DNA from: a virus
Virus record (IMG/VR): IMGVR_UViG_3300047509_000103
Coordinates: 16,858 to 80,857 of that record
DNA length: 64,000 nucleotides
Strand: one strand, 5' to 3'
The position numbers and the translations under genes are program-made. Below, piece after piece: positions 3,745 to 49,564 of this stretch; within the stretch, counting starts at the first letter, position 1; every line of letters starts with the position of its first letter. Under the pieces are notes generated by a model. The model saw only the letters and a list, made by a program, of their open reading frames with translations. It was not told the origin of the DNA and searched no databases.

Positions 3745-5162
3745 AGATACTTACGGGCGATTGCCGCCAGGTGCTGGCCACGCTGCCAGCCGAGAGCGTG
3801 CACAGCATCGTGACCGACCCGCCGTACGGCATCGGGTTCATGGGCAAGGAGTGGGACCATAAGAACATCGTGGCGCGTGCCAAGCAACGCGCCGGCCACG
3901 CGCAGCCAAAGCATCGCAACGGCACCGAGCGCACAGCGCCTAGGCGAGCGCTCGCCGAAGAAGCTGGCGCATACGACCTCTCGCCAGCAGCGATGCGCGC
4001 TTTTCAAAGCTGGACTGCTGAATGGGCAGCGCAAGCGATTCGTGTGCTGAAGCCTGGCGGCATCGTTCTCTGCTTTGCTTCGACCAGGACGTATCACCGT
4101 ATGGCCTGCGGTCTTGAGGACGCCGGTTTCGAGGTGTTCGATCAAATTGGCTGGCTGTTCGGGTCCGGCTTCCCGAAAAACCACGACTTCGCGAAAGATC
4201 AGGAGGCGAGCAAAGCTGCCGGTGCGCGCGTCATCAAAGCGGAATTCACCGGGCACCAGATGGCCGTTGGCTTTGGTACCGCACTGAAACCGGGATGGGA
4301 GCCGATCGCCGTCGCGCGCAAGCCCATCAGCGGCACGTATGCAGAGAACGTTCTATTGCACGGTTGCGGCGCGCTGAATATCGACGGATGCCGAGTGGAG
4401 ACAGAAGACCATATTGGCGGCGGTGCCTATTCGGCGAACGGGAACCGAAACGTATCTGGATCGTTGTCACCAACTGGAATGAATCGCGCTGGCGCGACCG
4501 CTGCGCAAGAGTTCGTCCAGCCGAAAGGCCGGTGGCCAGCAAACGTTGTGCACGACGGTAGTGATGAAGTTCTCGCCGCTTTTCCGAGTGTTGCCAGCGG
4601 CATACCCAGCGGCACCAAAGCCGGTAACAACAACAACGTTTTCGGTCAGTTTGCCGGCGGTATTCCGGTGACAGGCTACGGAGACGCCGGCAGCGCCGCG
4701 CGTTTCTACTATTGCGCCAAAGCTAGCAAGGCTGATCGCGAAGCCGGTTGCGATGGTCTTCCGACCAAACGCGGCGGGATGGTGAGCAATACCAGCGGCC
4801 AGCACATGACGCGGCGGGATGGTGGCGAGCCAGGCCAGCGCGCCAATCACCACCCCACGGTCAAACCCACCGAGTTGATGCGCTGGCTTGTGCGGCTCGT
4901 CACGCCACCGGGGGGGGCAGTGCTCGATCCATTCCTTGGTTCGGGCAGCACGGCGCGCGCGGCGAGCATCGATGGCTTCGACTGCATAGGCATCGAGCTG
5001 GACCCGGAATACGTGGCGATTGCCAAGCATCGGGTGAGCGGCGACGCGCCGCTATTCGCCGATCACGCAGCCAGCGGCAGCGCCGGCAGCACCACAACAG
5101 CCAGTGCCTCATCCTCAAGCGATGGGTCGCCAGAGACCAGTTCGAGGTCGGCGCCGACATGA
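3735..5162 (+). CDS. N6/N4 DNA methyltransferase (beta class)
   Basis: VTDPPY, HPTVKP, VLDPFLGSGST. Confidence 0.92.
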   Translation: MSVKILTGDCRQVLATLPAESVHSIVTDPPYGIGFMGKEWDHKNIVARAKQRAGHAQPKHRNGTERTAPRRALAEEAGAYDLSPAAMRAFQSWTAEWAAQAIRVLKPGGIVLCFASTRTYHRMACGLEDAGFEVFDQIGWLFGSGFPKNHDFAKDQEASKAAGARVIKAEFTGHQMAVGFGTALKPGWEPIAVARKPISGTYAENVLLHGCGALNIDGCRVETEDHIGGGAYSANGNRNVSGSLSPTGMNRAGATAAQEFVQPKGRWPANVVHDGSDEVLAAFPSVASGIPSGTKAGNNNNVFGQFAGGIPVTGYGDAGSAARFYYCAKASKADREAGCDGLPTKRGGMVSNTSGQHMTRRDGGEPGQRANHHPTVKPTELMRWLVRLVTPPGGAVLDPFLGSGSTARAASIDGFDCIGIELDPEYVAIAKHRVSGDAPLFADHAASGSAGSTTTASASSSSDGSPETSSRSAPT

Positions 5163-6889: not shown

Positions 6890-7746
6890 ACGCGACTGCA
6901 GAAGCCAACCCAAACACCGTCACCGAGCCACGAACCTACACGCCGACGTGCGAAGAGCACGGCTACGCGATCGGCGATGACATGGTCTGCCCAACTTGCG
7001 AAGCCCAGCGCATGCTGCACGAGACGGCTGAGCACGATCGCTCCATGCAGGCAAAAACACGCTTGGTCGAAGCTCAGCGCATTGCCCAAGCCAAGATCGA
7101 GCGCCAGATCGAAAGCGCTGGACTGCCGGCACGATTCCGCGACTACCGACTGGACACGTTCCCGCGCAGCGCGATCGTTCTGAAATCGGCAGAGCAGAAA
7201 GCCGAGCTAGACGTCGCGATCGCCGCATGCCGCACGTTCGTGAACCGCTGGCCGCAGATGCGCAAGGACGGTACGAACCTGATCATGATCGGATCCACCG
7301 GTACCGGAAAAACCGGCCTGGCCTGCTCGATCGTCAACGCTGTTATGCAAGAGCACCACGCCACCGGAATGTTCATAAGCGCCTACGGCGCGGTGAGGCA
7401 CCAGCGCGATACATGGGGCCGAAAGGGAAAACGCGAGATCGATGCGCTCAGAGAACTGGTCGAGCCAGACATCCTGGTGCTGGACGAGGTTGGAGTAAGC
7501 CTCGGCGGCGACGCCGAAATGCTGATGCTCTGGGAAGTGATCAATGGCCGGTACCAGGAATCAAAACCCACCATCCTGATCAGCAACGTGCCAATGGATG
7601 ACTACGAGCAGCGCGCGATCAACGGTACGGTCGAAATGCGGGCAGGCCTGAAACGCCGTCTCGGCGGCCGTGCGATGGACCGACTGCTGGCAAACGAATC
7701 CAGCGTGATCCGCTGCCAATGGCCGAGTTTGAGAGCGAAGGCATGA
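6886..7746 (+). CDS. DnaC/IstB-like AAA+ helicase loader
   Basis: GSTGTGKT, LVLDEVG, INGRY..KPTILISN, RAMDRL. Confidence 0.9.
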   Translation: MNATAEANPNTVTEPRTYTPTCEEHGYAIGDDMVCPTCEAQRMLHETAEHDRSMQAKTRLVEAQRIAQAKIERQIESAGLPARFRDYRLDTFPRSAIVLKSAEQKAELDVAIAACRTFVNRWPQMRKDGTNLIMIGSTGTGKTGLACSIVNAVMQEHHATGMFISAYGAVRHQRDTWGRKGKREIDALRELVEPDILVLDEVGVSLGGDAEMLMLWEVINGRYQESKPTILISNVPMDDYEQRAINGTVEMRAGLKRRLGGRAMDRLLANESSVIRCQWPSLRAKA

Positions 7747-8045
7747 ACCGCCGCCGTGACGACCGTCGCGGCCCTAGCGAGGAAACTCGGATGAGCGGCA
7801 ACCGCGGAAATGGAAATATCGCTGACGGCGACAAGCAGATGGCGCTGATCGCGCGAATTCTCGCGTGCACAAGGCCTACACCGATCAACGAGGTTATCGC
7901 CGCAACCCAATGCGCCAGGGCGACGGTGTATCGGGTCGTAAACCGGATGCAGAAGCACTTCCCGTTGGAATACGTGCGCGGCAACAACTGGCAGCCGGGC
8001 CGCATCCACATGCGCCACGCCATCGGCGGTAGGAGATATCAATGA
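7743..8045 (+). CDS. HTH DNA-binding protein
   Basis: 'INEVIAATQCARATVYRVV'. Confidence 0.6.
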   Translation: MNRRRDDRRGPSEETRMSGNRGNGNIADGDKQMALIARILACTRPTPINEVIAATQCARATVYRVVNRMQKHFPLEYVRGNNWQPGRIHMRHAIGGRRYQ

Positions 8046-9422: not shown

Positions 9423-10510
9423 TGCAGCCGCGGCACCTGACCGCCGAGATCCTGCGCGCACTCGAAGCAGCGCCGATGACGCTGACCGAGCTGTGCCAAG
9501 CGCTCTGGGTCGTCACTGGAATCGAGGTGAGCCGTCGCCTGAAGCGCTTGGCAGCACTCGGCTACGTCCGTGCGCGCTACGTGCACACCTACACCACAAA
9601 AATCCCGATAACCAAGATCGAAGGGTTGTCGCGTGTCGTCTGGTACCTGAAGAGTCAGCCGGCACCGACGATCGATGTGCGCCGCGATCAGAAGCCGCCA
9701 GCGCTACCAAAGCGCACCAGCGAGCCACGCGCGCAGCGGCAGAAGGTCAACCCATTCGCCAACGAGCGCCGCGAGCCTGCCGAGGTACTGGCGATGCTCG
9801 CCGGCCGCACAAACTTCCTGACACCGAACGAGGGGCGATCGACTGATGGCTCCAAGCTGGTGCCGATAGACGTTGCGCACGCCTTGCCAGCCGCATCCGA
9901 CAAGTTCGGCGCAGCGGTCGCAATGGCTGTGGCGTGCCAGCGCGAGGCAGAGTGGCCAAAGGTGAACAAGTTGGGGTTTGTGCCGCTGTTGCGCGAGCTC
10001 ATACGCCAGCGCGCGTTCCCTGGCGTGGTTTCTGGCCCGCTCAAGCACCGCGCCCGCATCGTGCTATGGGACGCGTTCCACGACTACATCCGCCCGAAGC
10101 AGCGGCAGTCGTTTAGGAAAGCCGCCAAAGCTGCCCGCATCACTGAAAGCGCCTACCGGTTTCTGCACAAGTACATCACCGCATATCTGGAAGACCACAA
10201 GAACACCGCCGCTGGCGAGGCGTGTTTCTTCCTGTTCGCTCCAGCAGCAGCGAAGCGTGGCGAGCACGCACTCGTGCTAACCGACGACGAGGGCAAGGTG
10301 AGTGTGCTGCACGCGATCAATGCGCTCGAGCTGATGATCGCCGCCGACAACCTATTCAGCAGCCAGGCCGACGAGAGCGAACGCGTCGTGGCCCTGATGG
10401 CAGAAATAGCAAACGCACGCGGTCGCAGCCGATCGGTAGGCGTCTTGCGCCTGCACGGCGTCGACCATGTTGCGGTGTACATCAACCCAACTGAGGAAGC
10501 AACTGCATGA
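9422..10510 (+). CDS. wHTH plus putative Q-like late antiterminator
   Basis: N-terminal wHTH; 'DVAHAL...AAKAARITESAY' HTH; position upstream of late promoter/terminator. Confidence 0.5.
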   Translation: MQPRHLTAEILRALEAAPMTLTELCQALWVVTGIEVSRRLKRLAALGYVRARYVHTYTTKIPITKIEGLSRVVWYLKSQPAPTIDVRRDQKPPALPKRTSEPRAQRQKVNPFANERREPAEVLAMLAGRTNFLTPNEGRSTDGSKLVPIDVAHALPAASDKFGAAVAMAVACQREAEWPKVNKLGFVPLLRELIRQRAFPGVVSGPLKHRARIVLWDAFHDYIRPKQRQSFRKAAKAARITESAYRFLHKYITAYLEDHKNTAAGEACFFLFAPAAAKRGEHALVLTDDEGKVSVLHAINALELMIAADNLFSSQADESERVVALMAEIANARGRSRSVGVLRLHGVDHVAVYINPTEEATA

Positions 10511-10746
10511 AAAACATCACAGGTTTCGTTCTGAGCTTGGCGATCGGCATCGCCGCCGGCGAGATCCACAACCGGCTGCACGCCGCGGCGCCGACAGTGC
10601 CAGCACCGATCACCATCACAGCAACCGACGCCCTGGGCAACGTGCGCACCGGCACCGCGACCTGGACGAGCATGGACTACAACGCCAACGCGATCACCAT
10701 CGCCTACACGCACGACACGCTGACGTGCAACGGGTTCGAGCCATGA
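10507..10746 (+). CDS. small exported/membrane protein
   Basis: hydrophobic N-terminus MKNITGFVLSLAIGIAAG; GAGG RBS. Confidence 0.6.
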   Translation: MKNITGFVLSLAIGIAAGEIHNRLHAAAPTVPAPITITATDALGNVRTGTATWTSMDYNANAITIAYTHDTLTCNGFEP

Positions 10747-10748
10747 CC

Positions 10749-11043
10749 ACCCAACCAGCGATGACAGGCGAGGAAGTGCTGGATGCGATGCTACTCGCTC
10801 TTGCTTGAGAGGGACTGTGATGGCCAATAAGAAGGTGAATATTCCAGAAGGTTGGGCTTTGGTGCCAGTCAATCCCACCAATAAGCAGTTTATGGCTGCC
10901 GAGAAAACAGGGTTTCATTCTTACACCGGAACGTTCTGCCTTGATCCTTTCGCGGTTTACGAAGCGATGATTAAGGCAGCGCCGAAGTACAAACAAGCGA
11001 GGCAGCCATGACCCAACCAGCGATGACAGGCGAGGAAGTGCTG
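10749..11043 (+). repeat. 33-bp perfect direct repeat (10749-10781, 11011-11043)
   Basis: ACCCAACCAGCGATGACAGGCGAGGAAGTGCTG occurs twice. Confidence 0.95.
10820..11011 (+). CDS. small phage hypothetical protein
   Basis: 'PEGWALVPVNPT..YEAMIKAAP', a common phage module. Confidence 0.65.
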   Translation: MANKKVNIPEGWALVPVNPTNKQFMAAEKTGFHSYTGTFCLDPFAVYEAMIKAAPKYKQARQP

Positions 11044-11400
11044 CGCGAATTGGATGATGTTGTGGGAGTGCCTGTGCCGGTCGGCCCTTACGGCAAGAAA
11101 TTACATCGCATCCGCACCGCCGTCGCCTCCCTGCTGGCCGAACGGGATGGGTTAAAGGTGGAGAATGAGCGTATCGCTAGATTTGCCGAAATAGGATCGC
11201 TTGATAGCTGGATACGGCTTTCTGATGACGACAAACGCAAGTGGTTCGTGATGTTCACTGATCGTGAAGCTGAGTACCGAGAAATTATCAGAGACTTGTG
11301 CGAACTGAGACAAGAGGGCTGGAACATCTGCACAAAGCCTGTTTGGCAGGAACGGGTACAGAAAGCGTGGGCACGCGCGTTCGGGTTGTTCGAGCCGTGA
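11008..11400 (+). CDS. hypothetical protein
   Basis: ATGA coupling, GAGG RBS. Confidence 0.6.
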   Translation: MTQPAMTGEEVLRELDDVVGVPVPVGPYGKKLHRIRTAVASLLAERDGLKVENERIARFAEIGSLDSWIRLSDDDKRKWFVMFTDREAEYREIIRDLCELRQEGWNICTKPVWQERVQKAWARAFGLFEP

Positions 11401-11500
11401 CCCCTACCGCTGCCACCCAAGGCTAGTGAGTGAGTGTTAGAAGCGCGAAAAGCTCGTTGATTTGAAACCTGGCCTTACTAACTTACTTTGAGGAATCGTT

Positions 11501-11971
11501 ATGGGACGTGAAGTGAAACGAGTACCGATGGATTTTGATTTTCCGATTGGCGCGTCGTTCGCGGATGCTGAATACAACAAGCACTGCGCGACGTGTGACA
11601 AGGAAGACCATGACGATTGCGAGTGGCCTTTAAATGATCCGCCGACCGGCGAAGGTTGGCAGCTTTGGCAGACCGTTAGCGATGGTCCGATCAGTAAGGT
11701 CTACGCGACCGCCGATGAACTGATCGACTGGATGTGTCAGCCCGTGCCGAAGGAAAAACAAACACACAGTTGGCGTGATCCGCGCGAAAACCCGGAGTAC
11801 CCGCACATGCCATGGGCGCAGGGCTGGCGCAGAGAAATAGCAGAGCCGTTTGTGAAACAATGTGGATGGGCACCGAGCATGATTGTCTGTGGGGGAAAGG
11901 TGATGGATGGCGCAACGGCAATGGTCGAAGGACTCGACAACTCGGTTAGTAATCCCGGTTCAACAGAGTGA
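11501..11971 (+). CDS. phage hypothetical protein
   Basis: 'MGREVKRVP.DFD..PPTGEGWQLWQTVSDGPIS'; GAGG RBS. Confidence 0.75.
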   Translation: MGREVKRVPMDFDFPIGASFADAEYNKHCATCDKEDHDDCEWPLNDPPTGEGWQLWQTVSDGPISKVYATADELIDWMCQPVPKEKQTHSWRDPRENPEYPHMPWAQGWRREIAEPFVKQCGWAPSMIVCGGKVMDGATAMVEGLDNSVSNPGSTE

Positions 11972-12043
11972 GGGATTTTCGCGCTCTTTCCATATGGCTG
12001 GATTTACTACCGGGATAACTAACCTAACTTGAGGAAAACTGAA

Positions 12044-12718
12044 ATGAAAGCAAAAGCGAAAACCAATGTAAAAGCGAAAACTGGCCCGATTGAAATTGCT
12101 GTGATTGCGGATCGTTCCGGATCGATGTTGTCAATCGTAGACGACGCAATCGGCGGATTTAACGAGTTCCTTGCTCAGCAGAAGAAGGAAAAGGCACCGT
12201 CCAATGTGACGCTGCTGTTGTTCGATACCGCGTTCGACTACTACTGCAAAAACCAGCCGGTCAAGGATGTTGTACCGCTGAATCGTACCACCTTCGTTCC
12301 GCGCGGTAGCACGGCTCTGAACGACGCCATTGGTCGCACGCTGGCTGACCTTGAGGCTCGCGCACCAGCAAAGGCCATCATCTGCATTCTGACTGACGGC
12401 CAGGAAAACGCCTCGCGCGAGTTCACGACTGCGCAAGTGAAAGAGAAAATCAAGGCAGCGGAAGCGCGCGGCTGGAACGTCGTGTATCTGGCCGCTAATC
12501 AGGACGCTTTTGCGGTCGGCGCTGCGTTCGGGATCAACGTACAGAACACCAGCAACATCCAGGCGACTGGCGCGGGCATGCGCGGATTCAGCGCATCTCT
12601 TTCAACCGCAACGCAAAACTATGCGGCGACCGGATCGGCAACGATGAGTTCAACTGGAGAGTCAGCATCCATGCAAGCGACCTACGACGCAGCGCTCAAG
12701 AAACAAAAGGCGAGTTAG
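12044..12718 (+). CDS. von Willebrand factor A (vWA) domain protein
   Basis: MIDAS motif DRSGSM...T(ALND)...TDGQEN. Confidence 0.9.
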   Translation: MKAKAKTNVKAKTGPIEIAVIADRSGSMLSIVDDAIGGFNEFLAQQKKEKAPSNVTLLLFDTAFDYYCKNQPVKDVVPLNRTTFVPRGSTALNDAIGRTLADLEARAPAKAIICILTDGQENASREFTTAQVKEKIKAAEARGWNVVYLAANQDAFAVGAAFGINVQNTSNIQATGAGMRGFSASLSTATQNYAATGSATMSSTGESASMQATYDAALKKQKAS

Positions 12719-12786
12719 TAATCCCACCGCCTGAGCGCGTTAGCTGTTCGCGCTTTTGACAAGCGCCTATTGAGAGAGGTGAGGAA

Positions 12787-13077
12787 GTGAAGCAGGTATT
12801 GGTGGAAGTGGATATAGGCTTCCATGGTGCGTGGGTTGTCCATCGGCGCGTTGTCGATTGGTCTTATTGGAACGGTGACGTTTACCGCGCCATGATTCAG
12901 CAGGCGATTGACGAATACACGCGCATCTACGGATGGCGAGGTCCGCATGGAGCGAAGTGGATGCTGCAACACCGAGAAAACTGCGTTAGACATTCCGCAA
13001 CGGGACCGTATGGCCCCATTCGCTTACCGACTGAACCAAAGCCTATTTCACTTATAGATTACGAGGCAACCCCATGA
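12787..13077 (+). CDS. hypothetical protein
   Basis: GAGG RBS, coupled to next gene. Confidence 0.55.
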   Translation: MKQVLVEVDIGFHGAWVVHRRVVDWSYWNGDVYRAMIQQAIDEYTRIYGWRGPHGAKWMLQHRENCVRHSATGPYGPIRLPTEPKPISLIDYEATP

Positions 13078-13397
13078 ACACATCAGCGGTCAAAACGGAT
13101 AGGGCGAGCGTGGAGGCGATGGTGCAGTGGCTACGTGATTTCGGCTATCTTGATCATGGACGACTGCTAGAGGCCCTGCTCGCCGAGCGTGAGAAGGCGG
13201 ACACGCAGTACGCGCTATTGCTGGCCGCGAGTAAACAGGGCGAGAAGGCGCACGAAATTCGCGCCAAGATTATTCACGAACTGGAAACCAAGCTCGCCGC
13301 CGCCGAAGCCGAGCGTGAGGCGCTGCGCAAGGGCGAGTACATTTGCAAAGAATGCGGGTTGCGCAAAAACGCACAGAGTGAGCCGGCGACGTTCTGA
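13074..13397 (+). CDS. coiled-coil protein with C-terminal CxxC
   Basis: 'GEYICKECGLRK'; coupled on both sides. Confidence 0.6.
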   Translation: MNTSAVKTDRASVEAMVQWLRDFGYLDHGRLLEALLAEREKADTQYALLLAASKQGEKAHEIRAKIIHELETKLAAAEAEREALRKGEYICKECGLRKNAQSEPATF

Positions 13398-14518
13398 TGA
13401 AAGCCCTGCGCCTCAAAGTTCACCCCGAATCGTGGCCTTGGCTAGATCAGGCAGCGCGAGAGGTCAATTTTGCTTGGAACTTCTCGAACGAAACTCGCCA
13501 CAAAGCCGCGCACCCGTTCTTCGGTAAGCCACGCTACCTGTCTGGATGGGACCTGGACAAGCTGGCCACCGGAGCTGGCGAAGTCCTGAAACGGATCGGC
13601 ACGGATACCATCTGCCGCGTCAATAGCGAGCTTGTAACCAAGTGCAAGGCAGTCCGGCGTTCAAGGCTGCGTTGGCGTGTCAGTGCTGGTCCGCGTCGTT
13701 CGCTTGGTTGGGTGCCGTTCAAGTCGGCCAACCTCCGCCGACATGGCAACGCAATCCGATTCCGTGGCAAGACATTCCGCGTATTCAATGCCGGATTGCT
13801 CACTGGCGCGAAGCTGCGACAAGGGTCGTTTTCGCAGAATGCGCTTGGTGAATGGTTCATCAACATAGCGGTTGAAACCGCCTCTACGGACGTACCGGCA
13901 GAGCACGCCGTCGTCGGCATTGACCTTGGCCTCAAAAGCGCTGCAACAACGTCAGACGGCGACGTGCTTGAAGCCAGTCAGTTCTACCGCGGCATCGAGC
14001 CACGCATTGCCCAGGCGCAGCGTCGCGGCCACAAGCGGCAGGCTAAGCGGCTGCACCTGAAAGCTAAGAACCGGCGCGCTGACGCCCTGCATAAGTTCAG
14101 CACAAAGATCGTTGCGCAGTATCAGAACATCCGCATCGGCGACGTGAGCAGTTCCAAGCTGGCGAAGACCAAGATGGCAAAGTCCGTCTTGGACGCTGGC
14201 TGGTACATGCTCAAAACGCAGCTTCAGTACAAGGGCCAGCAGGCCGGTCGCAGCGTTGAAGTGGTCGATGAGGCATACACAACACGCGCATGCAGCAACT
14301 GCGGAGCCTTAACCGGCCCAGCAGGTTTGGACATGCTCGCTGTAAGGTCGTGGCGCTGCTCGGATTGTGGAACCGAGCACGAGCGGGACGTTAACGCCGC
14401 TCGCAATATCGCCATGACCCCGCCGAGATGCCGGCGGCCATCTGCGGGAACGAGAGCCAGAACTGGCGTCACGAGGATCGAATCGCAGGCGGTTGAGCAT
14501 CATCGGAGAATTTTATGA
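13397..14518 (+). CDS. tnpB: TnpB-family RNA-guided endonuclease with rearranged RuvC-II; no transposase in the window
   Basis: GIDLG (RuvC-I), IRIGDV (E replaced by G), VDEAYTT, CSNC..CSDC zinc finger, RDVNAARNI (RuvC-III). Confidence 0.9.
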   Translation: MKALRLKVHPESWPWLDQAAREVNFAWNFSNETRHKAAHPFFGKPRYLSGWDLDKLATGAGEVLKRIGTDTICRVNSELVTKCKAVRRSRLRWRVSAGPRRSLGWVPFKSANLRRHGNAIRFRGKTFRVFNAGLLTGAKLRQGSFSQNALGEWFINIAVETASTDVPAEHAVVGIDLGLKSAATTSDGDVLEASQFYRGIEPRIAQAQRRGHKRQAKRLHLKAKNRRADALHKFSTKIVAQYQNIRIGDVSSSKLAKTKMAKSVLDAGWYMLKTQLQYKGQQAGRSVEVVDEAYTTRACSNCGALTGPAGLDMLAVRSWRCSDCGTEHERDVNAARNIAMTPPRCRRPSAGTRARTGVTRIESQAVEHHRRIL

Positions 14519-16068
14519 ATCAGGCAGAGCTGGCCAACATCGTTGCGGAGATGCGTTCGCAGGCAAATAATGAGTGGAACGACAAGCTTGGCAAGCACGC
14601 CGACAAAGACGACTTGAACGACTGGGCAGACCGTCTAACCGCCCTTGGGTCGCCTGCACCTAACGCGGAAGCACTCAGGGCGCTGGTTCGGAAGTGGCGT
14701 GCGCACTTTGGCGGCGACAGAATTGTTAGCGGCGAATGGAATCTTGGCTATACAGGCGCAGGAATCGAATGCGCGAACGAACTGGAAGCCGCCCTTGGGT
14801 CAGGCCCGGATGGGAAGATGGGTGAAGCGGGCGCATCCGGGCCAACTGAAACGCCAACCGTTGAGGCGTTGCGTGCGGCATTGCTGGAATGCGCGCGGAT
14901 GGCTGAGGCGCTCAAGCTGCCGTGCGGCGATGATCCAGAAAGCGCGCAGGCGATTCGCAACGGACAGTATGCCTCGATAAGCCATGTGGCCCATATCGCA
15001 CTCGGCACAATAAAAGGCGCGGCTATACAAACTTCTGCGCAAATAGCATGGGATTTGCGCTATTCCATAGATTACATGATCACTTACCTTGAAGACGCCC
15101 CAACGGAAGTTGTGCGCAATTGGAAGCGCGTTGAGGCTTCTGCCAAGAAGGATGGTAAGCAACTCTCAGCGTTGAACGTGACTATGTGTGAAATACCTGA
15201 TTTTTGGATATGCGTAGCCGGAGATGGTCGCGATGCTGAGTGCACCATAGCATTCGGTCCTATCAAACGAGACGATCCGAACAAGGGGGAAGTCGAGCGC
15301 GAGCTATGCAATCAACACATAAACGATTTGCTGATTGAAGAACCTGGCAAGCAATTTCACCTTGTCGCTGCTTACCTGCACCCGGCCTCACCCTCAACGC
15401 AGCGCGAGGAAGATCACTCCATCCCGCTTGGCACTGATGCTATACCCGACCTTCCTTTCGAGCTTGACGTACTCGCTGGTCATATTGGGCTAGTCGAAGA
15501 CATCATTTGGGACGCTGAAAACCACGTACCCAATCACACAACAGATGCTGGTATTGGTGGCATCCGAGCGGTAGCGCAGAACCTACTTGGCGGAATGAAA
15601 GGAACGCAGGAACGTTTGCAAGCCTGCGTCGGCAAAGGAACCTCGCCGTCAAACGCTGAGAGTTGCTCAACTCAATCCCCGCTTCTCACAAAAGGTGTAC
15701 CGGCAGGGGGTGAGGCGGAGCCGGTGGCGTGGCAATACCGCTACATCGATCCGCAGGAAGGTCCGGGGTTGTGGCAATCGTTGCATGAGCAAAATTTGGA
15801 AACTATCAGGCGCAGAAAAGATCACGAAGTGCGTGCACTCTACACCCACCCACCGCTTGCGAAAGCCCCTTTGGGTGACATGGTGCTGGTGCCGAGGGAG
15901 CCGACGCAGGCAATGCGTGAAGCTGCCGCAAACGCGGCAGTACCGGATAACGGTACGTTCTATTACCCATTTGACGCGAACGATATTCAGCATGCCTACA
16001 AAGCCATGATTGCTGCGGCACCGCCACCCGCTGAGCCTCACCCTGAAACGCCAAAGGGTGAGGAATGA
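14515..16068 (+). CDS. mosaic multi-module phage protein
   Basis: modules 'EPVAWQY..ALYTHP', 'LVPREPT..AM', repeated ALGS junctions. Confidence 0.7.
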   Translation: MNQAELANIVAEMRSQANNEWNDKLGKHADKDDLNDWADRLTALGSPAPNAEALRALVRKWRAHFGGDRIVSGEWNLGYTGAGIECANELEAALGSGPDGKMGEAGASGPTETPTVEALRAALLECARMAEALKLPCGDDPESAQAIRNGQYASISHVAHIALGTIKGAAIQTSAQIAWDLRYSIDYMITYLEDAPTEVVRNWKRVEASAKKDGKQLSALNVTMCEIPDFWICVAGDGRDAECTIAFGPIKRDDPNKGEVERELCNQHINDLLIEEPGKQFHLVAAYLHPASPSTQREEDHSIPLGTDAIPDLPFELDVLAGHIGLVEDIIWDAENHVPNHTTDAGIGGIRAVAQNLLGGMKGTQERLQACVGKGTSPSNAESCSTQSPLLTKGVPAGGEAEPVAWQYRYIDPQEGPGLWQSLHEQNLETIRRRKDHEVRALYTHPPLAKAPLGDMVLVPREPTQAMREAAANAAVPDNGTFYYPFDANDIQHAYKAMIAAAPPPAEPHPETPKGEE

Positions 16069-16322
16069 ACGTTGGCGACATGGTGATGCTTATTGGCTGC
16101 GACGACTTCATGCCGCCAATCGGCAGCGTTGGTGAAATCGTTGGAACCGACCTAACTGGCGGCATCTTTGACTTCGAGGTGCATTTCCCGGATCACCCGT
16201 GGCCCGGTTCGCGTGTCGATCCAACGTGGCCAAACTGGCTGATACCACCGTACTGGCTGATGAAAATCGAGCCGCCGAAACGAGCCGTCGTCAGCACGAC
16301 TGTAGGGTCGAGCACAGCTTAA
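16065..16322 (+). CDS. small SH3-like hypothetical protein
   Basis: 'NVGDMV..GSVGEIV..FEVHF'; GAGG RBS. Confidence 0.6.
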   Translation: MNVGDMVMLIGCDDFMPPIGSVGEIVGTDLTGGIFDFEVHFPDHPWPGSRVDPTWPNWLIPPYWLMKIEPPKRAVVSTTVGSSTA

Positions 16323-16355
16323 AATTCAGATGCGGGACACATTTGCACAAAACAC

Positions 16356-16384
16356 TTGACAGCGCGCTCGCAAAGGTTCAATTT
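16356..16384 (+). promoter_or_regulatory. putative late promoter (pR'-like)
   Basis: TTGACA at 16356 with weak -10 (CAATTT, 17-nt spacer) upstream of a terminator and the lysis genes. Confidence 0.45.
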
Positions 16385-16451
16385 CCCCATCCGGGATAAG
16401 AGGTAAACTCCCTCTACGTCCGCACACATTTGAATTTTTTACGATCAGATG

Positions 16452-16482
16452 AGGCCCGCCAAGCGCGGGCCTTTTGCTTTTT
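16452..16482 (+). terminator. intrinsic terminator (tR'-like)
   Basis: AGGCCCGC-CAAGC-GCGGGCCT followed by TTTGCTTTT. Confidence 0.8.
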
Positions 16483-16595
16483 CCTGCCGCCCATATTGTC
16501 TGTCCTTCGGCAGAGACCTGGCCCACTGCGTGATCAGGCCGGTCTATTCGATTCACCCCGCAGCGGGCTCCAGACGGAATACACCTAGCAGCGCC

Positions 16596-16703
16596 GAGTG
16601 GCGCCGCGTCCCAATCGAGCGTTGTCTGGTACGGTGCGCAAATTGCCATCGTCGCAAAACGGCTCGTGAATTAGGTTGGTTTAGAGGTTCAAAAGCCGCC
16701 TGA
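16596..16703 (+). pseudogene. HNH endonuclease C-terminal remnant
   Basis: 'IERCLVRCANCHRRKTARELGW*' without the upstream HNH half. Confidence 0.55.
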
Positions 16704-16794
16704 TCCGAGGATACGCCGGGCGCCTTGTAACCGAAGCGCCCCGTCATTTTCAGGTCTGGCGACAACCGCGCCGACACCACAATCAGGAGTCACC

Positions 16795-17502
16795 ATGTCA
16801 CGCACACCACCCGTACCCGCTATTGCACCCGAGTTCGACACCGTCACAGGCTGGGATAAGCACCCAAGCAAGGTTGGCGGTCTTCGCAACCGATTCGTCG
16901 CCGAAGCAATCGCTGACATCGCGGCCGCCGGCTCACCCGAGATTGCAGCACACATCCCGCCGATCACCGTGGGCCGGTTCCTGATCGCGCCCGACAGCGG
17001 CACCAGCCTGCTCGAGCCGGATCTGGAGCGCTATCAGGTGCCCGACGCGGCGCAGGCGGCAGCCCTTGGCCTGACGGCGCAAGACCTTGTCCAGATTCGC
17101 GATAACCTGCGCCTGCTCAATGACTGGCAGGTATCCGTGTTCAAGGAGTCTGGCAAGTACGAAAGCAAGCCGCAGGACACCTACCGTGGCGAAGCCGGCC
17201 GCAGTGGATTCCCGAAGTACGTGCCGATCATGCAGCCGAAGTTTGGCCCGGACGGCAGCCCGGTCATGGCGACCATCTCGCCCATGGAAGCGGCACTCCA
17301 GTGGCAGTTCTACCACGCTTGTGTCGCCGAAGAGCAGACGAATTGGGCTGGCCAGACGTATCTGGCCCATGGCCCCATCCAAGGCGATCACTTCGTCGCC
17401 GACTCGTGGTTCGATCTGCGCGACGGTCGCAACCTCGCGCGCTACTACCGCAGCTGGGCCATCTCGTTCGGCGTCGACATCGATCCCGAACCGTCCACCT
17501 GA
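16795..17502 (+). CDS. hypothetical protein, first late gene
   Basis: AGGAG RBS, 235-aa ORF. Confidence 0.75.
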   Translation: MSRTPPVPAIAPEFDTVTGWDKHPSKVGGLRNRFVAEAIADIAAAGSPEIAAHIPPITVGRFLIAPDSGTSLLEPDLERYQVPDAAQAAALGLTAQDLVQIRDNLRLLNDWQVSVFKESGKYESKPQDTYRGEAGRSGFPKYVPIMQPKFGPDGSPVMATISPMEAALQWQFYHACVAEEQTNWAGQTYLAHGPIQGDHFVADSWFDLRDGRNLARYYRSWAISFGVDIDPEPST

Positions 17503-29864: not shown

Positions 29865-30983
29865 ATGGCCGTTACTGGCAATTTATCCCCAGCAGAAAAG
29901 AAGTTCCTTTTCCGCAAAAAGCTGCAGCAGGAATACCAGGAAGACTTTTTCTTCACTGGCGCGGAAGGTCAGGGCACGGCTGTGATCGAGAAGATCACCG
30001 AGCTGTCCCGCAACTCCAAGGGCGAAGAAGCTGCGTACTTCCCGCTGATCCCACGCCTGACCGGCGGTGGCATCATCGGCGACAACACGATGCATCATCG
30101 TGAGCGCCAGGCAAGTGCTGCATGGCAGAAGTGCAACTTCTCCGCGTTCGCCAACGCGATCGTCAACAAAGGCGCATTGTCGGATCAGAAATCGCTGATT
30201 CAGGTGCGCACGATCCAGCGTCCGGTGCTCGGCAAGTGGCTGGCCGACGCGAACGAGGATCAGGCCGTTCTCACCGCTTCCGGCATCAGCTACCTCTACA
30301 ACACGGATGGCTCGCTGCGCGTCACGCCGGAAGGTCAGGATCCATGGACGATGCTGGACTACGCCAACGACGTATCGGCGCCGTCTGTCAACCGTCACTA
30401 CAACTGGAACGCCAGCTCAAATTCGTTGGCGTTGGTAGCTGATCACGCACTGGTCTCAACGGACAAGTCTTCCTACGGCTTGCTGCCGGAGATGAAGGCC
30501 ATTGCGATGGACAAGCGCATCACACCGAGCCGTCTCGGGGGTCGTGATGTGCACGTCGCGCTCTGCCACACAAGCGTGATGTCGGGACTGTGGAAGGACG
30601 ATGACTTCCGCAGGTCAGTCGTGCAATCCGGGGAACGTGGCTCGAACAACGCGTTCTTGAAGTTCGGTCACTTCACCATTCACGACCTGCTGATCGTTCC
30701 GTACTCGCGTTGCTACAACACGCGAGGCGCCGTATCCGGCACCAACAAGTTCGGATCCGGATTGAACGTGGATGGCTCACGCATTCTGCTGATGGGTGCG
30801 CAAGCACTTGCCCGTGCCGACTTGGGTCCGCCCGAGTGGTTGGAGCAGAAGGACGACTACGGCCGCACGACCGGTTTCGGCGTGCAGCACTTCGGTGGCT
30901 GGCTCAAGCCGGTGTTTCCGAGCTCCTACGACAACGGTTCGAACGAGGACTTCTCGATCGTATCCGTCGACGTGGCGATCTGA
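29865..30983 (+). CDS. major capsid protein (N4-gp56/DUF4043-like)
   Basis: 'IEKITEL..KGE.A..L...L.G.G..GDN', 'LMGAQALA.ADLG.PEW'; position after scaffold. Confidence 0.82.
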   Translation: MAVTGNLSPAEKKFLFRKKLQQEYQEDFFFTGAEGQGTAVIEKITELSRNSKGEEAAYFPLIPRLTGGGIIGDNTMHHRERQASAAWQKCNFSAFANAIVNKGALSDQKSLIQVRTIQRPVLGKWLADANEDQAVLTASGISYLYNTDGSLRVTPEGQDPWTMLDYANDVSAPSVNRHYNWNASSNSLALVADHALVSTDKSSYGLLPEMKAIAMDKRITPSRLGGRDVHVALCHTSVMSGLWKDDDFRRSVVQSGERGSNNAFLKFGHFTIHDLLIVPYSRCYNTRGAVSGTNKFGSGLNVDGSRILLMGAQALARADLGPPEWLEQKDDYGRTTGFGVQHFGGWLKPVFPSSYDNGSNEDFSIVSVDVAI

Positions 30984-31046
30984 CCCGCGCACGGCGGCCA
31001 GTCGTAAGGGCTGGTCGCCACTTCACCCAACACGAGGTAAAAATTC

Positions 31047-31445
31047 ATGAGCACGACCAATCAGTTCCAGCGCACCGTCCCGCTCGTCTCTCCAGTGGAA
31101 CTTGGAAAGGCGAACAACGGCATCGGCAATGCCATCAATACGATTTTGAGAAGTGGTGCAACTCTCACCAACATCAAGGCGTATGTCCGGACCGCATTCG
31201 ATGGCTCCGGCACGGTCACCCTGACTGTGACCGATGGTACGACGACGTTCATCAACGCGCAGAGCGTCAAGACGGCCAGCGCCACTACGCCGCTGACAAA
31301 CGCCGACTCGGACAACGACTATCCGACCGGCGGCACGATCCAGGCCTACATCACCGACCAGAACAGCGACAGCACGAAAGGCCAAGTCGTCGTCAAGTTG
31401 TTCTACGAGGACGGCAAGGTCGTCGACATCTACGACAACGGCTAA
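31047..31445 (+). CDS. virion structural protein
   Basis: 'VRTAFDGSGTVTLTVTDG'; follows capsid gene. Confidence 0.7.
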   Translation: MSTTNQFQRTVPLVSPVELGKANNGIGNAINTILRSGATLTNIKAYVRTAFDGSGTVTLTVTDGTTTFINAQSVKTASATTPLTNADSDNDYPTGGTIQAYITDQNSDSTKGQVVVKLFYEDGKVVDIYDNG

Positions 31446-31475
31446 TCCAGCAGCCCAAGAGACGCGCAGTAAGCA

Positions 31476-31509
31476 AGCCGGCGGCACATTTCGTCGCCGG
31501 CTATTTTTT
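31476..31509 (+). terminator. intrinsic terminator
   Basis: AGCCGGCGGC-loop-GTCGCCGGCT followed by ATTTTTT. Confidence 0.75.
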
Positions 31510-31520
31510 GGAGTAAGCAC

Positions 31521-31904
31521 ATGCGTTTCAGACATAAAACCGGAGTCAGGTTGGCATCCCTGGCCGGCCCGATCGTTTGGGTTGGCAAGGACTGGTTGGA
31601 ACTTCCGCCGAGCCTGTTCCAAGAAATGGCGATGAAAGCGGGATGTGAAGTCGACACGAGCACGATTCCGTCGTTGCCTCCTGCACCGGAGCCAGTCACC
31701 TCGCCGCTCATGGTGAGCGATAACGTGCGGCAGGTCACGCGCACCGCGCTGATTAAGATGATTTCGCGCAATGCGGATGGTGATTTCACCAAAGAAGGAT
31801 TGCCAAACCTCAAGACACTGTTGCGCGAGTCCGGCACTCCTGTCGACAAAGAAGTTGCGTTGTCGATCTTCGCCGAGCTGCAGCGTGAGGCAGAAGAAAC
31901 GTGA
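31521..31904 (+). CDS. hypothetical protein
   Basis: 'DFTKEGLPNL' motif; GGAG RBS. Confidence 0.7.
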   Translation: MRFRHKTGVRLASLAGPIVWVGKDWLELPPSLFQEMAMKAGCEVDTSTIPSLPPAPEPVTSPLMVSDNVRQVTRTALIKMISRNADGDFTKEGLPNLKTLLRESGTPVDKEVALSIFAELQREAEET

Positions 31905-32623
31905 CCGTAGATGACCTGGTTTGCACATTCAGGCAACGGGCAGGCGATAACGCTTTGCCGCATCTGTGGCATACCAGTTTTCTGTATCAAGTCGCGAGCG
32001 AAGCAGAACGCGAAGCATGCGTTCGCGCTCGCCTGATATGGGACGAGACGAGCAGCTTTCTTACCATTCCCATCGTCGCTGATCAGCCGATTTATGCGCT
32101 CGATCAGCGCATCGACCGTATTGAGCGCGTGACATTTTTCCCGACAACGGGGCGGCCGTGGGATTTGATTTTGGCCGGGATCGATCGAATCGAGCAGCAG
32201 CGCGGCGGCCACTTGTATACCGGATGGGACTGGCACACCGGATACGGCAACGATTCGGACTGGCAACGCAGAAAAGGACGCCCAGAGTACGCAGTGCGCC
32301 TTGAGAACACGCTTCGGCTGTGGCCAATGCCGCATGGCAACTATGGTAGTGGCACGATCCAGATCGCGTGCTACCGCTATCCGCTCGATGCGATGGAAAC
32401 GCCGGTAGACGAGCCGGAAATTCCTGTCGAAAACCACGACGGCTTGGTCGACTGGATGCTGTACAGAGCCTATTCGACGAAGGACCAGGACGACCAGGAC
32501 GATCAGCGCGCACTGGGTGCACTTGCGACGTTCAACGCGCGCTTCGGCGAACGCCCCAGTGCCGACGTATTGCGCAGGCATCGCGAGAAGCGTCGCGTAA
32601 CGACACGCTACGGAGGTATTTGA
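31901..32623 (+). CDS. head-tail adaptor
   Basis: 'EAEREAC.RA.LI', 'GRPEY', 'PEIP...HDGLVDWMLYRAY'. Confidence 0.75.
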   Translation: MTVDDLVCTFRQRAGDNALPHLWHTSFLYQVASEAEREACVRARLIWDETSSFLTIPIVADQPIYALDQRIDRIERVTFFPTTGRPWDLILAGIDRIEQQRGGHLYTGWDWHTGYGNDSDWQRRKGRPEYAVRLENTLRLWPMPHGNYGSGTIQIACYRYPLDAMETPVDEPEIPVENHDGLVDWMLYRAYSTKDQDDQDDQRALGALATFNARFGERPSADVLRRHREKRRVTTRYGGI

Positions 32624-34080: not shown

Positions 34081-37000
34081 TTCGCTACCTACTTGCACTG
34101 CTGCTGACTGCCAACGCGTTTGCAGCGACGAACACGCTCGTCACCAGCAATCCACCGAATCACGGCTTGGTGGCAGCAAAGGACACCAGTGCCGGTGCCG
34201 GCGATGCGGCCAAGGTGCCACTGCTCAATTCATCTGGCCTCATCGATCGCACGATGATACCGGTGCTTGGCACGACGACGTATTCAGTCGATTCCTACGG
34301 TGCTGTCGGAGACGATTCAACCGACGACTCTACCTCTGTGCAGAACGCAATCAACGCGGCTGCGGCAACTGGCGGCGTCGTTACGTTCCAGGCAAAAACC
34401 TATCTCATCAATTCGCAGCTGACTATTCCGAACGATGCAGGAAGTCCGGTAGCGCATCAACGTCCGATCAGGTTGCAGGGTGCAGGTTCGCACATGAACG
34501 GCCAAGGCGTCGCGGCGCCGTATGGCGGGACGATTCTGGATCTACGCACCAACGCCACAGACGGCAAGTTGGTCAGCTATGGCCTTGGCTTGCTCGAGCT
34601 GCGCGACATTACGTTCACCGATAAAGGTACAAATTCAAATGTATATGTGCTCGTCACGAACACGACATTGCACGCGCAGGACAATGCCTTCATAGGTAAT
34701 CCGTCGAAGTCAGCTACTACCTGCGACCAAGATGCGATCGTACTGGGCGGAACAACGCACACGTTTGGCAACGGGCCGACGAATTCGTTTCAAGGTTACG
34801 GCACCGTCATCAGCAACAACTTCTTTGATCGCATTCGCCGCGCGGTCTATCTGCGCGTGGATGCGAACACGAGCATCGTTCGCGATAACACGGTCTGGAC
34901 GAACAGCGGAAGCAATCTGGCCAATGGCGCAGTGATTGAGTTGGATGGTGGAGTCTATACGGCCACTGGCAACACGATTGAAGGCAACCTGGTCGAGATC
35001 GGCAACTACACCTATGGGATCAAGCTAGCGAACGGCAGCGCCAACACACTCATTGGCAACGATGCCTTTGATGCCAGTGGCTCGACCATTGCGATGGTGC
35101 GCGCTGAATCCACAGCGACGCGCAACGTCATTGTCGGAAGTCTGGCTGGCGGTTCGCCGGCGATATATTTCAGCGACGGCAATTCATCGCCGTCAAGCAA
35201 TACCTATGTATCCACCGATCAAGGCCATCCGTCGAACTTTGGGCCTGCGTACTTTTTCGACGACGCTGGCAATCAGCCGACGAAGTTCGACAACGTATTG
35301 TTTCCCGGTGGCAATGGCAAGACGACGATTCAGCCAGCAGCCACGTCGACTGGTTCAGCGCTCATGCTGCGGGCACTGCGCAGTGCAGCAGAGTCAACGT
35401 GCCCAAGCGGCAGTGCATGGGACATCACCTATGCCGGCGACATCGACTTTTACAGTTCAAGCTCTTGCGGCACGCAGCTTGGGCAGATCACGAACTTTGG
35501 TCGCAACTGGCTCGCCAGCGGAACCGGCGGCGCAATGTTGCAGGACAGTGGGAGCGGTGGATCGAACTTCACGCTGAAAAACGCAACGGTCCTATTTCAG
35601 AATCACGCTGGAACGCAATACGCATCGATCGGATCGAGCGCAACGTCATTCACGCCGCAAGTAAGCGCCGCGAGCTACGTCGCCAACGGTACGGGCGGGG
35701 CTGGATACATCGAATTGCAAACGCAGTCGGCGAAGCCAGGAACGCCTGGCACAAGTAACCTGCGCATGTATTCCGATGCCTCGGGGCGGTTGGCGTGGAT
35801 CGGCTCAAACGGATTCCAGCGCGTTTTCGACGGCACAGGCAACACGGCAGATCGAATCTACACGCTGCCTGACGTCGCTGGAACGATGCTTAACACGGGC
35901 AACGTGGTGAATATCCTCACCACAACCGGCGCATTGAAGGGCAACGGAAGCGGCACGATAACGCAAGCCGCGTGCGCTGATCTGTCCAACGGCGCGGCCG
36001 GATGCTCTGCAACATCGCTGCCGCCGAACGGATCAGCCGGTGGCGATCTAGCTGGCACGTATCCCAACCCGACGCTGGCCAATATCTCCACCGGCACGAC
36101 GATGCCGGGAACGATCGTCGCGACGAATACGGCCGCACCGTCCTCGCCAGCATCAGGTAAGGACACGCTTTACACCGACTCGACTGATCTGCGACTGCAC
36201 GACAAGAACGCATCAGGCGTTATCGGTACAACTGTCGTTGCCGACACTGGCGCGACGAACAATTTCCTAACGGCAATATCTGCTGCTGGTGCAATATCCA
36301 AGGCGCAGCCTTCGTGTGCGAGTCTTAGCAATTCCGTTGCTAGCTGTTCAACTGACGCGACGAACGCGACGAACATTTCGAGCGGCACGCTCGGCGCGGC
36401 GCGGCTTCCAAACCCCACTGCGTCAACTTTGGGCGGCGTTGAGTCGCTAGCCGCTACCTCGCATCAATGGATCAACACGATCAGCACGAGCGGCGTGCCA
36501 TCGAGCACGCAGCCCGCATCGACAGATTTAAGCGATAGCGCGACTGTCGCAAAGACCACTGACGTACAGGTATTCACATCCACTGGAACATGGACGAAGC
36601 CGACAGGCGCGCTTGCAGTATTCGTATATGCAGTTGGCCCAGGCGGTGGTGGCGGGTCAGGACGGCGCGGCGCAACCTCATCAATAGTGGGCGGCGGCGG
36701 TGGTGGCGGAGGTGGCGCGGTCGTGTTTATGACTATGCCAGCTACGGTCCCTGGCGCAACTGTCGCTGTGACAATCCCTGCTGGCGGGACTGGTGGCACC
36801 GCTCAGACTGTAGATTCAACCGATGGCGTTGCTGGTGGACTACCAACAGGTAGCACGCAGTTCGGCGCTTTGTTACTCGCAGCGCGCGGCGGCGGCGGGG
36901 CAGCTGGAACGAATGGTGCGGCGACCGGCGGCGGTGGCGGTACTGGTGTCTTAAATGGTGGTGCCGGTGGTGCTGCCAGCGCTACTGGTTTGCTCGGAGC

Positions 37001-47815: not shown

Positions 47816-49564
47816 ATGGCACTCGATCCGAGCTACCTGAACGACATCAATGGCGACAGCGATAAGACGCAATCTGTCTACAAGCCGAAGCGGAATCTAT
47901 CTACTGCCGGCGTGCCATCTGTTGATAACGCATCGGCGAATCCAACCACTGAGGCGGGTAAATCGGTATGGGACAATTTCAGTCCAGGTGCAGCAACTGG
48001 GTTGAATATTAGGTCTTTCTCCAATGTGCAGGACGACACGCAGCGCGCGTCCGCTGCAGCACAAAACAAGGCTGATAACACTGCGATGTATGGCGATCCG
48101 GCAAAATACATTGCCGGGTCGAAACCGCCTGTAGACCTACGTCAACCAGCACCTTCCGTATTCAGCCCGGACGCTTCGCAACCGACCGTGCTTAACCCGC
48201 TTGGGCGAGTGACGACAGGCGTGCAGCCGCCCATCGTGCCGCCAGCTCCATCAGCACCTGCCAGAAGTCTCTCCGGATCGCCGCCGCCCGGCGCTGCTGG
48301 TGCGATGGTTGGTGCCATTCCTGCGGTGGCAACCGCTGGACCAATATCAAAGCCTGGCACTGCTGGTGCGACGGACAATGGCGATCCCGCCAACACTCCA
48401 GACATCACTTACGACCCGCAGAACCGAGGTTTGCCGAACACCACCGCGAGCATCCCCGATGCGAAAGCATTGGCTGCTGTGCGCGACAAGGCCATCAGTG
48501 ATTACCAGGCGCCGTCGACAGGCGCTCCGAAGTCGTTCGCTGATCGCGCAACGGCGTCTGGTGGTGTGAAGCAGGCGGACGGCTCCTACGCATTCAGCAA
48601 CATGCCGGCGCAGCCTGGATACAACGCTAACCTCGATTCGCTTGGCGACAACGCCAATGTCGTCAGCGCGCGGAACATGGCAAATCCAGGGCTCGGGACG
48701 AACGGCTACACCCCGACGACTGATCAAGGTGTCGGCTCGACGGCGTATCGAGGATTGACCAACGCCATCGCTGATGCGCGCAGCGACAACCAGAAAACGC
48801 AACGAGGCGCGCTGTCGGACATTTATTCGATGGCTAACCAAGACCCGCGTTCAGTGTCTGGAACCGCTGCGCGCAATGCGGCGATCGACCTCAAGAGCGA
48901 TCTTGAATCTGCTGGTCGATATGCGCACGGAAGAAACATCGCACAGGTACAGCAAGCGGCGATCGATCGGTATAGGAGCAGTATTGGTGCTGCTCCCGGG
49001 ATGCTGTCGGAAGGCATGCACGACGAGGCCGGCACGAATGACGAGGCGATGCGTGGCCTCACGTCACTCGGCACCGCAACGTTGAACAACGATGCGCGCG
49101 TGAACGCCGCGGAGGCGCACGCGAATGCAGTGATCCACGGCGCCGACCAGCGGCTTACTGGAACGCAGTACAACGCGGACCAGCGGTTGACAGGCACGCA
49201 AGACACCAACTCGGCACGTCTTGGCGTGGCTGGTACCGCTGCTGATGCAAGGGTTGCCGCTTCGGCCAATGCAACCAACCGCACGGCCGCATCCGTAGCG
49301 GCGAATGAAGCCGTTGTGGATGAGTACATCAAAAATCATCCGAGCACCACGCGAGAGGATGCGTACAAGCTGGCCAGGCTTCCCTACCCATCAGCATCTG
49401 TGCAGATGCAATCGAGAAACCTCTCGCAACCGGCGAGCGCGCCTCAATCAAGCGCGCAAACGCCTAGCGTTCCGGCGGGCATGAAGTCGTTCGCTGGTTA
49501 TTCATCGCGCGGCAATCCGGTGTTCCTTGACGCAAATGGCAACAAGCACGAGGCCGTTCAATAA
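47816..49564 (+). CDS. putative ejection/internal virion protein
   Basis: low-complexity Ala/Gly/Thr; ADQRLTGTQ tandem repeat; precedes the giant gene. Confidence 0.7.
   Translation: MALDPSYLNDINGDSDKTQSVYKPKRNLSTAGVPSVDNASANPTTEAGKSVWDNFSPGAATGLNIRSFSNVQDDTQRASAAAQNKADNTAMYGDPAKYIAGSKPPVDLRQPAPSVFSPDASQPTVLNPLGRVTTGVQPPIVPPAPSAPARSLSGSPPPGAAGAMVGAIPAVATAGPISKPGTAGATDNGDPANTPDITYDPQNRGLPNTTASIPDAKALAAVRDKAISDYQAPSTGAPKSFADRATASGGVKQADGSYAFSNMPAQPGYNANLDSLGDNANVVSARNMANPGLGTNGYTPTTDQGVGSTAYRGLTNAIADARSDNQKTQRGALSDIYSMANQDPRSVSGTAARNAAIDLKSDLESAGRYAHGRNIAQVQQAAIDRYRSSIGAAPGMLSEGMHDEAGTNDEAMRGLTSLGTATLNNDARVNAAEAHANAVIHGADQRLTGTQYNADQRLTGTQDTNSARLGVAGTAADARVAASANATNRTAASVAANEAVVDEYIKNHPSTTREDAYKLARLPYPSASVQMQSRNLSQPASAPQSSAQTPSVPAGMKSFAGYSSRGNPVFLDANGNKHEAVQ

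Follow-up and report, generated by a model that had tools for sequence, protein, structure and literature searches.

An asymmetric two-part DNA site that brackets single accessory genes in temperate soil phages

Introduction

Phage accessory regions show the fastest turnover of anti-defence and host-takeover genes, and the precise entry and exit of single genes is known in few cases, namely integrons, the PeSLs of T4-type phages and dif modules. PeSLs lie in one direction. They are made up of promoters of a sigma-70-like kind together with terminators that form stem-loops (PMC2839356). In Acinetobacter, alternating asymmetric sites define dif modules, for which experiments have demonstrated inversions, deletions and the exchange of modules (PMC13141974). 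The sites of these modules must alternate, the modules are of two types and single modules are thought to move via cointegrate formation and resolution at different sites (PMC13141974). Another short repeat, the SAS of Cluster K mycobacteriophages, is 13 bp long, is found almost entirely in one orientation and has no known function (PMC3203893).

The present analysis concerns a stretch of 64,000 nucleotides of phage DNA (the window), which corresponds to bases 16858–80857 of an 80.9 kb IMG/VR virus record with an estimated completeness of 93%. An initial annotation, made from the letters of the window, had drawn attention to a 41 bp repeat around two accessory genes. We find that, in several unrelated soil phages, the motif precisely delimits slots occupied by different single accessory genes; the content of a slot varies between close relatives and the site is conserved in phages that share nothing else.

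Source phage and gene neighbourhood

The source is a temperate tailed phage with a GC content of ∼60%. Its genes encode a P22-type portal protein (best cultured match 41% identical, from a Paracidovorax phage), a large terminase, a tailspike, an SNF2 helicase, a DNA methylase, a DnaC-like loader and a phrog_1 tyrosine integrase (60958–62178). A blastn search with positions 10800–13400 gave no match among 50,697 phage records, and no backbone relatives were found with the 517-residue neighbour as a query. An ORF of 3,093 residues at 49564–58845, which probably encodes an injected protein, contains a DarB-like antirestriction stretch (phrog_10089).

The repeat locus follows directly after the replication and recombination genes, within a run of plus-strand genes with overlapping stops and starts (10467, 10805, 11008, 12787, 13074, 13397, 14515 and 16065). 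Gene A and the vWA gene (Table 1) are the only members of this run with real intergenic spacers (100, 72 and 68 nt), and their GC content is not distinct from that of their neighbours. Gene A had no Pfam or PHROG match, and homologues with 54% identity are encoded on two viral contigs without the element. The vWA protein is 94% identical to a protein (P0005) encoded on a contig of 1,983 nt. Around homologues of the two genes in other phages, no comparable flanking inverted repeats were found.

The element in the window

A motif search returned three copies of the 41 bp element, each with 23 nt between its boxes, as originally described. In the form GTTAGTAA-N23-TKTTCGCGCT, the motif matches copies 2 and 3 directly and copy 1 inverted, on the minus strand; Table 1 gives the strand on which each copy reads from distal to proximal box. 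In a dinucleotide-preserving shuffle 0.05 matches are expected by chance, and none of 100 shuffles contained three. The full motif had no other site in the window when up to three mismatches were tolerated, and the whole 80.9 kb record contains no copy beyond the three. GTTAGTAA alone occurs at three sites in the window, all within the three copies (0.22 expected); TTCGCGCT alone is not enriched (10 seen versus 6.5 expected).

Table 1. Copies of the element and bracketed genes, in window coordinates.
Feature	Position	Strand	Remarks
Copy 1 (5'-type)	11442..11482	+	distal to proximal AGCGCGAAAA-N23-TTACTAAC
Gene A, 156 aa	11501..11971	+	phage-only hypothetical family
Copy 2 (3'-type)	11945..11985	-	mirror image of copy 1
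Junction where two slots meet back to back	11944..12024	.	hairpin, 16-bp stem, one mismatch
Decayed 5'-type copy	11983..12023	+	keeps TAACTAAC (12016-12023) and a partial spacer alignable with copy 1
vWA-domain gene, 224 aa	12044..12718	+	phrog_7371; weak Pfam VWA matches below cut-off
Copy 3 (3'-type)	12714..12754	-	box A' provides the TAG stop of the vWA gene

The proximal box (box A) of copy 1 ends 18 nt upstream of the ATG of gene A. In copy 2, box A' lies in the final codons of gene A, the stop codon of which falls inside the spacer. The annotation had the repeat supplying the TAG of the vWA gene, and the ORF does end (12718) inside box A of copy 3; it was also right that copies 2 and 3 form direct repeats spaced 769 bp apart, and that a half-site (12010–12023) and a common leader, ACTAAC..TTGAGGAA, are present, the leaders aligning from TGGATTT to the ATG. 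The decayed copy has lost its distal box (box B), the place of which overlaps the distal box of copy 2. The hairpin at the junction has a z score of −3.3 on the plus strand and −3.9 on the minus strand. The layout from left to right is therefore copy 1 pointing right, gene A, copy 2 pointing left, the decayed copy pointing right, the vWA gene and copy 3 pointing left, or > < (>) < with the decayed copy in brackets.

Occurrence in other phages and genomes

A motif scan of IMG/VR gave two further records, G001 (36.8 kb, a complete record) and G002 (52.9 kb), and a looser search of both added copies, for totals of nine in G001 and three plus one decayed in G002. Contigs from soil and rhizosphere metagenomes (L054, L056, L057 and L058) also carry the element, and one copy with a 22 nt spacer in a relative of G002 (L068, record G003) is probably real. 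Further metagenome (L052, L053, L055) and viral (L064–L067, L069–L071) matches were rejected as chance, being single, mostly of low GC and without the GG motif. As the annotation had envisaged, the scan found unrelated single genes in such slots, between the same boxes at the same spacing, in an unrelated phage: G001 and the window phage have no protein in common even at E ≤ 0.5. In three related phages the slot gene is replaced, as described below.

All nine copies of G001 stand in strict alternation (> < > < > < > < >), for which the chance is ∼2/512 by our own arithmetic. They lie in a leftward early operon that has genes for Erf and a RecE-like exonuclease, with the integrase at its end. 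Four inward-facing pairs enclose one small ORF each (97, 134, 127 and 129 aa), the units formed by inward-facing pairs measuring ∼330–545 bp. The last G001 copy has no visible partner, and partnerless copies are also present in G002 (at 9213) and L058. At the right end of G001 (36748–36807), 50 nt past this last copy, there are tandem repeats of ∼12 bp (CCCATGCGGCGT-like).

The 5'-type and 3'-type copies of G001 differ systematically, the former having TTACTAAM and the latter mostly TTGCTAAG. At three of the 5'-type copies (L004, from G001, 4153–4208, 9440–9495 and 11857–11912) an ORF begins from a conserved GTG at the end of the spacer (GTGGCGTTACTAA...); it is ten codons long in each case and its stop overlaps the main start (GTGA or TGATG). 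At a fourth copy (L004 8456–8495) it is the main ORF that begins from this GTG, 6 nt after AGGAG. AGGAG stands 6–7 nt upstream of the conserved GTG in the spacers of two 5'-type copies. These upstream ORFs may reflect translational coupling.

When one genome of each of 185,579 prokaryote species was searched with the strict motif, seven single matches were obtained, of which two lie in coding sequences of Treponema type that are homologous. We read all seven as chance since they are without the extended features (NNCC, GM), and thus neither a host site nor an autonomous element was found in the species genomes. An unoccupied palindromic site (B-N50–64-B') was found neither in the local records nor in the viral contigs.

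Consensus architecture

Thirteen aligned copies give the consensus ..GGnGAnA AGCGCGAAMA KC-N..-GTGG.. TTRCTAAS, that is, a distal box AGCGCGAAMA, usually with a purine-rich GGnGAnA before it, a spacer with a GG-rich end and a proximal box TTRCTAAS. The core of the AT-rich proximal box TTACTAAC, TTASTAA, is a 7 bp palindrome. The spacer is 23 nt long, or 22 nt in five copies from G001 and G002, and the box centres are ∼32 bp apart, corresponding to three helical turns. In these 13 copies the boxes are near-invariant and the spacers mostly random, as though selection acted on two contacts with a protein. The element is a real site, and the repeat belongs to a small family of DNA sites in temperate soil phages that are asymmetric and built of two parts.

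Box A faces the bracketed gene in every case. On the 5' side it lies 0–18 nt from the ribosome-binding site or start, and on the 3' side 0–4 nt past the stop or overlapping it, with box B 6–283 nt from the outer neighbour gene. The bracketed proteins bear no relation to one another, and the bracketed genes, seven or more, are all co-directional with their operon. Alternating copies divide early accessory operons in temperate soil phages into modules of two kinds: small ones of a single gene with the proximal box inward, such as those of gene A and the vWA gene, and backbone blocks with the distal box inward.

The 3'-type copies are often translated, forming either the end of the upstream gene or the first codons of the next one (L005 1397–1437; L004 3880–3919 and 11423–11463; L054 461–501), and the distal box is then repeatedly read in one frame, as V/F-R-A. 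Their position inside coding sequence indicates that the element tolerates being coding.

Gene replacement and reassortment at the slots

G002, L057 and L058 are related to one another in mosaic fashion. Both arms of one slot are 97% identical in G002 and L058, with unrelated sequence of 170 bp (G002) and 673 bp (L058) between them; the left arm consists of a decayed distal box with its spacer, and the right of box A', spacer and box B', continuing into the next gene. L057 has the same right arm, and its sequence past box A differs again, up to the contig end. At a second site, a conserved 55 nt island and a distal box are followed by a different gene in each of the three, L058 departing from the other two from the spacer onward. 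Thus, the arm of distal box and spacer is kept in three related phages and the gene between is replaced.

A soil run of another study contains a contig of 1,158 nt with the vWA gene, at 78 differences in 693 nt (89% nucleotide identity). There the gene is followed by GTTAGTAA, a spacer and TTTTCGC. This spacer agrees with the reverse complement of the copy 1 spacer at 16 of 23 positions and with the copy 3 spacer at nine of 23, so that the vWA gene is joined to a copy-1-like spacer in the soil relative, which argues that arms and genes reassort. In G001, a 3'-type and a 5'-type copy belonging to different genes share 35 identical nucleotides (distal box, spacer and TT) in inverted orientation, and diverge from box A outward.

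Homology breaks at the box A/gene, box A/spacer and box B/spacer edges. Breaks that are spread over several box edges are not expected of a single crossover point, and recombination at short homologies fits them equally well. Contigs of three soil runs were compared. Those of run X1, which resembles the source, contained no inversion or deletion joint, although contigs drop rare variants; in run X3, joints that rest on sides of only 24–40 nt at 85% likeness give no more than a hint of presence/absence variants. No bracketed gene was observed in an inverted state.

Recombinase candidates

The remark in the annotation that no dedicated recombinase is visible nearby needs qualifying, as a TnpB-type gene lies 640 bp downstream of the repeats and the tyrosine integrase gene lies elsewhere in the window. 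The TnpB-type RNA-guided nuclease gene (13397–14518) matches Pfam OrfB_IS605 and the Cas12f1-like TNB. No transposase accompanies it and there is no space for IS ends, and it looks fixed in the operon, since its start and stop overlap the neighbouring genes. As a general partner of the repeat it was discarded because G001 has no homologue. The window phage integrase was likewise discarded as the reader of the site: it is unrelated to that of G001 and no box lies near its gene. In the window and in G001 no recombinase gene adjoins the sites, and no recombinase, transposase or other protein is common to the element-bearing phages. A 108-residue protein encoded at 7719–8045 of the window has a weak resolvase-type helix–turn–helix match (Pfam HTH_7, E = 3e-4, below the cut-off), which makes it a candidate small DNA-binding protein without a catalytic domain.

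Discussion

What is striking about the element is that two strictly conserved boxes occur in phages that share no gene and that the copies are mirror-symmetric around each gene. Our preferred reading, held tentatively as one with slightly less than an even chance of being right, is that the copies are module-boundary recombination sites comparable to alternating pdif sites and read by a factor that is probably host-encoded. A trans-acting DNA-binding or recombination protein would read both boxes on one face of the DNA; we infer its role from the conservation of the boxes, and it is probably host-encoded given that the phages share no proteins. Two co-infecting phages, or a phage and a prophage, would cross over at the palindromic proximal box or next to it, and this presumably site-specific event would swap the slot gene and leave the arms behind. 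If a recombinase does read the site, the slots would belong to a new system of cassette exchange, which might also serve as a tool for site-directed insertion. Tailspike segments of the window phage (33891–37370) and G002 (29943–32030) have ∼79–81% amino-acid identity in phages that are otherwise unrelated, which suggests a common or related host.

The proposal of recombination sites for single-gene cassettes, as put forward in the initial annotation, is therefore retained for the cassette-boundary architecture and not for a substrate of a site-specific recombinase, given that there is no common recombinase and no rearranged contig. The operon direction of all bracketed genes and the breaks at several box edges also count against a recombinase substrate. 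These same two observations favour the main rival reading, rather unlikely in our estimation, in which the element is kept for expression (as translation-start context, for transcript processing or for regulator binding), serving at both ends of accessory genes, and recombination at the boxes is a by-product, as in the PeSLs of T4. The element sits exactly at gene boundaries in operons, its 5'-type copies abut the ribosome-binding site and, in G001, include the AGGAG and GTG upstream-ORF features, and the systematic difference between 5'-type and 3'-type copies in that phage points the same way; PeSLs, too, mark insertion, deletion and replacement junctions (PMC2839356). A strand-specific signal, however, would not be expected to reappear in mirror image at the 3' end, the boxes vary far less than regulator sites typically do, coding sequence tolerates 3'-type copies and copy 1 of the window is without the upstream-ORF features.

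Searches for known expression signals also speak against it. A consensus scan for sigma-70 promoters and intrinsic terminators found nothing at any copy, no hairpin is common to the copies and Rfam covariance models run over 10500–17000 gave no matches at E ≤ 1. As possible identities of the motif, LexA boxes, sigma-54 and ECF sigma sites, NusB boxA, Chi and IHF sites were compared by eye and rejected, as only fragments match. Neither the recombination-site nor the expression-element reading explains everything. Should the element prove to be an expression signal, it would be a new and unusually conserved one that acts as a mirror pair; on either reading, swappable accessory genes of soil phages can be sought in a simple way by means of the motif.

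An undescribed gene-capture platform, which we consider unlikely, would have a recombinase or transposase insert or exchange promoterless single-gene cassettes exactly at the dyad between mirror-image half-sites. Its sites would, with the same low likelihood, have a recombination-signal-like geometry composed of the 7 bp palindromic core, the 23 nt spacer and the 10 bp distal box. Such a platform would be to phages what integrons and dif modules are elsewhere, and its site would be of a new kind.

It is improbable that the inverted pair represents the terminal inverted repeats of a non-autonomous transposon (a mobile insertion cassette, or a MITE with cargo) with one passenger gene and its transposase elsewhere. 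Inward pairs around single genes, the size of the units and the perfect alternation in orientation would suit such ends. The ends of Tn3-family transposons are ∼38 bp long and end in TAAG; the repeat is about as long and some copies end in GCTAAG. Against this, no pair has a target-site duplication and the flanks differ, no autonomous copy was found in the species-genome scan and the outer edge is not sharp, purine-rich bases being conserved past the distal box. The arms, moreover, remain with the backbone and the gene alone changes, whereas a mobile unit would do the opposite and take its ends along.

The annotation had offered two alternatives of its own, and neither fared well. Pairing of two copies within the polycistronic mRNA, which would loop out the gene for processing, stability or control of translation, is decidedly improbable. 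A 5' copy in the sense direction and a 3' copy as its mirror image would allow it, and the predicted fold of 11436–11992 pairs B with B' and A with A', but this follows trivially from any inverted repeat. In G001, four of four pairs have two uncompensated A/A' mismatches among eight positions and partners are no more alike than non-partners; the 23 × 23 internal loop is not conserved as a structure and a partner is missing for some copies. An explanation by paired sense and antisense promoters has very little chance of being right: two conserved boxes at a fixed distance recall promoters, and with TACTAA as the −10 element the distal box would be centred at −41.5, where class II activator sites lie (own arithmetic), but no −35/−10 pair was recognized at any copy, TACTAA is without the invariant final T of a −10 element, no phage RNA polymerase is among the window genes scanned, and the ribosome-binding site starts at the next base after box A in two G001 copies and the ATG 1 nt after it in L058, a geometry that excludes a start site downstream of box A because the leader would be removed.

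Comparison with known systems

The resemblance to the 23-type signal of V(D)J recombination is one of geometry only: a 7 bp palindrome, a 23 nt spacer and a distal conserved box. There is no RAG-type or Transib-type enzyme and the resemblance is formal only. Shufflon sites, like those described here, alternate in orientation around short segments; unlike in shufflons, there is no Rci-type enzyme, no adjacent recombinase and no segment found inverted.

Integron cassettes are similar in being promoterless single-gene units packed tightly between conserved sites, and the element contains GTTAG/CTAAC, the usual sequence of integron core sites. The polarity is opposite to that of attC, as the annotation had noted, the order being CTAAC-gene-GTTAG here and gene-CTAAC...GTTAG-gene in integrons. 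In attC, RYYYAAC ... GTTRRRY lies downstream of the ORF, whereas GTTAGTA fails GTTRRRY at the third R and there is no hairpin with L boxes. The sole integrase found in the window phage, in a search that had no IntI-specific model, is of the phrog_1 type and lies 48 kb from the repeats; none of IntI type was recognized.

With the SAS/ESAS of Cluster K mycobacteriophages the element has in common that it is a conserved asymmetric repeat just upstream of some start codons (PMC3203893); the sequences are unrelated, and SAS has no mirror-image counterpart at the gene's 3' end. The resemblance to PeSLs is that short conserved intergenic motifs flank small accessory ORFs and fall where related phages have junctions of insertion, deletion or replacement (PMC2839356; PMC4122927). 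Unlike PeSLs, the element has no promoter or terminator consensus and its copies are mirror images around each gene.

The dif modules are built from a 28 bp site with XerC and XerD arms in an 11-6-11 arrangement, in contrast to the 10 + 23 (or 22) + 8 arrangement here, which includes no dif-like sequence and, on the side of box A that faces the gene, no second arm. They are carried on plasmids and the present modules, known from sequence alone and with none seen in both orientations, in phage operons. Like the pdif modules of Acinetobacter, the slots are delimited by asymmetric alternating sites that produce two module types according to which half faces in (PMC13141974; PMC6449649). In both systems each module comprises one or a few accessory genes that vary between related replicons, and the recombinase is not encoded beside the sites.
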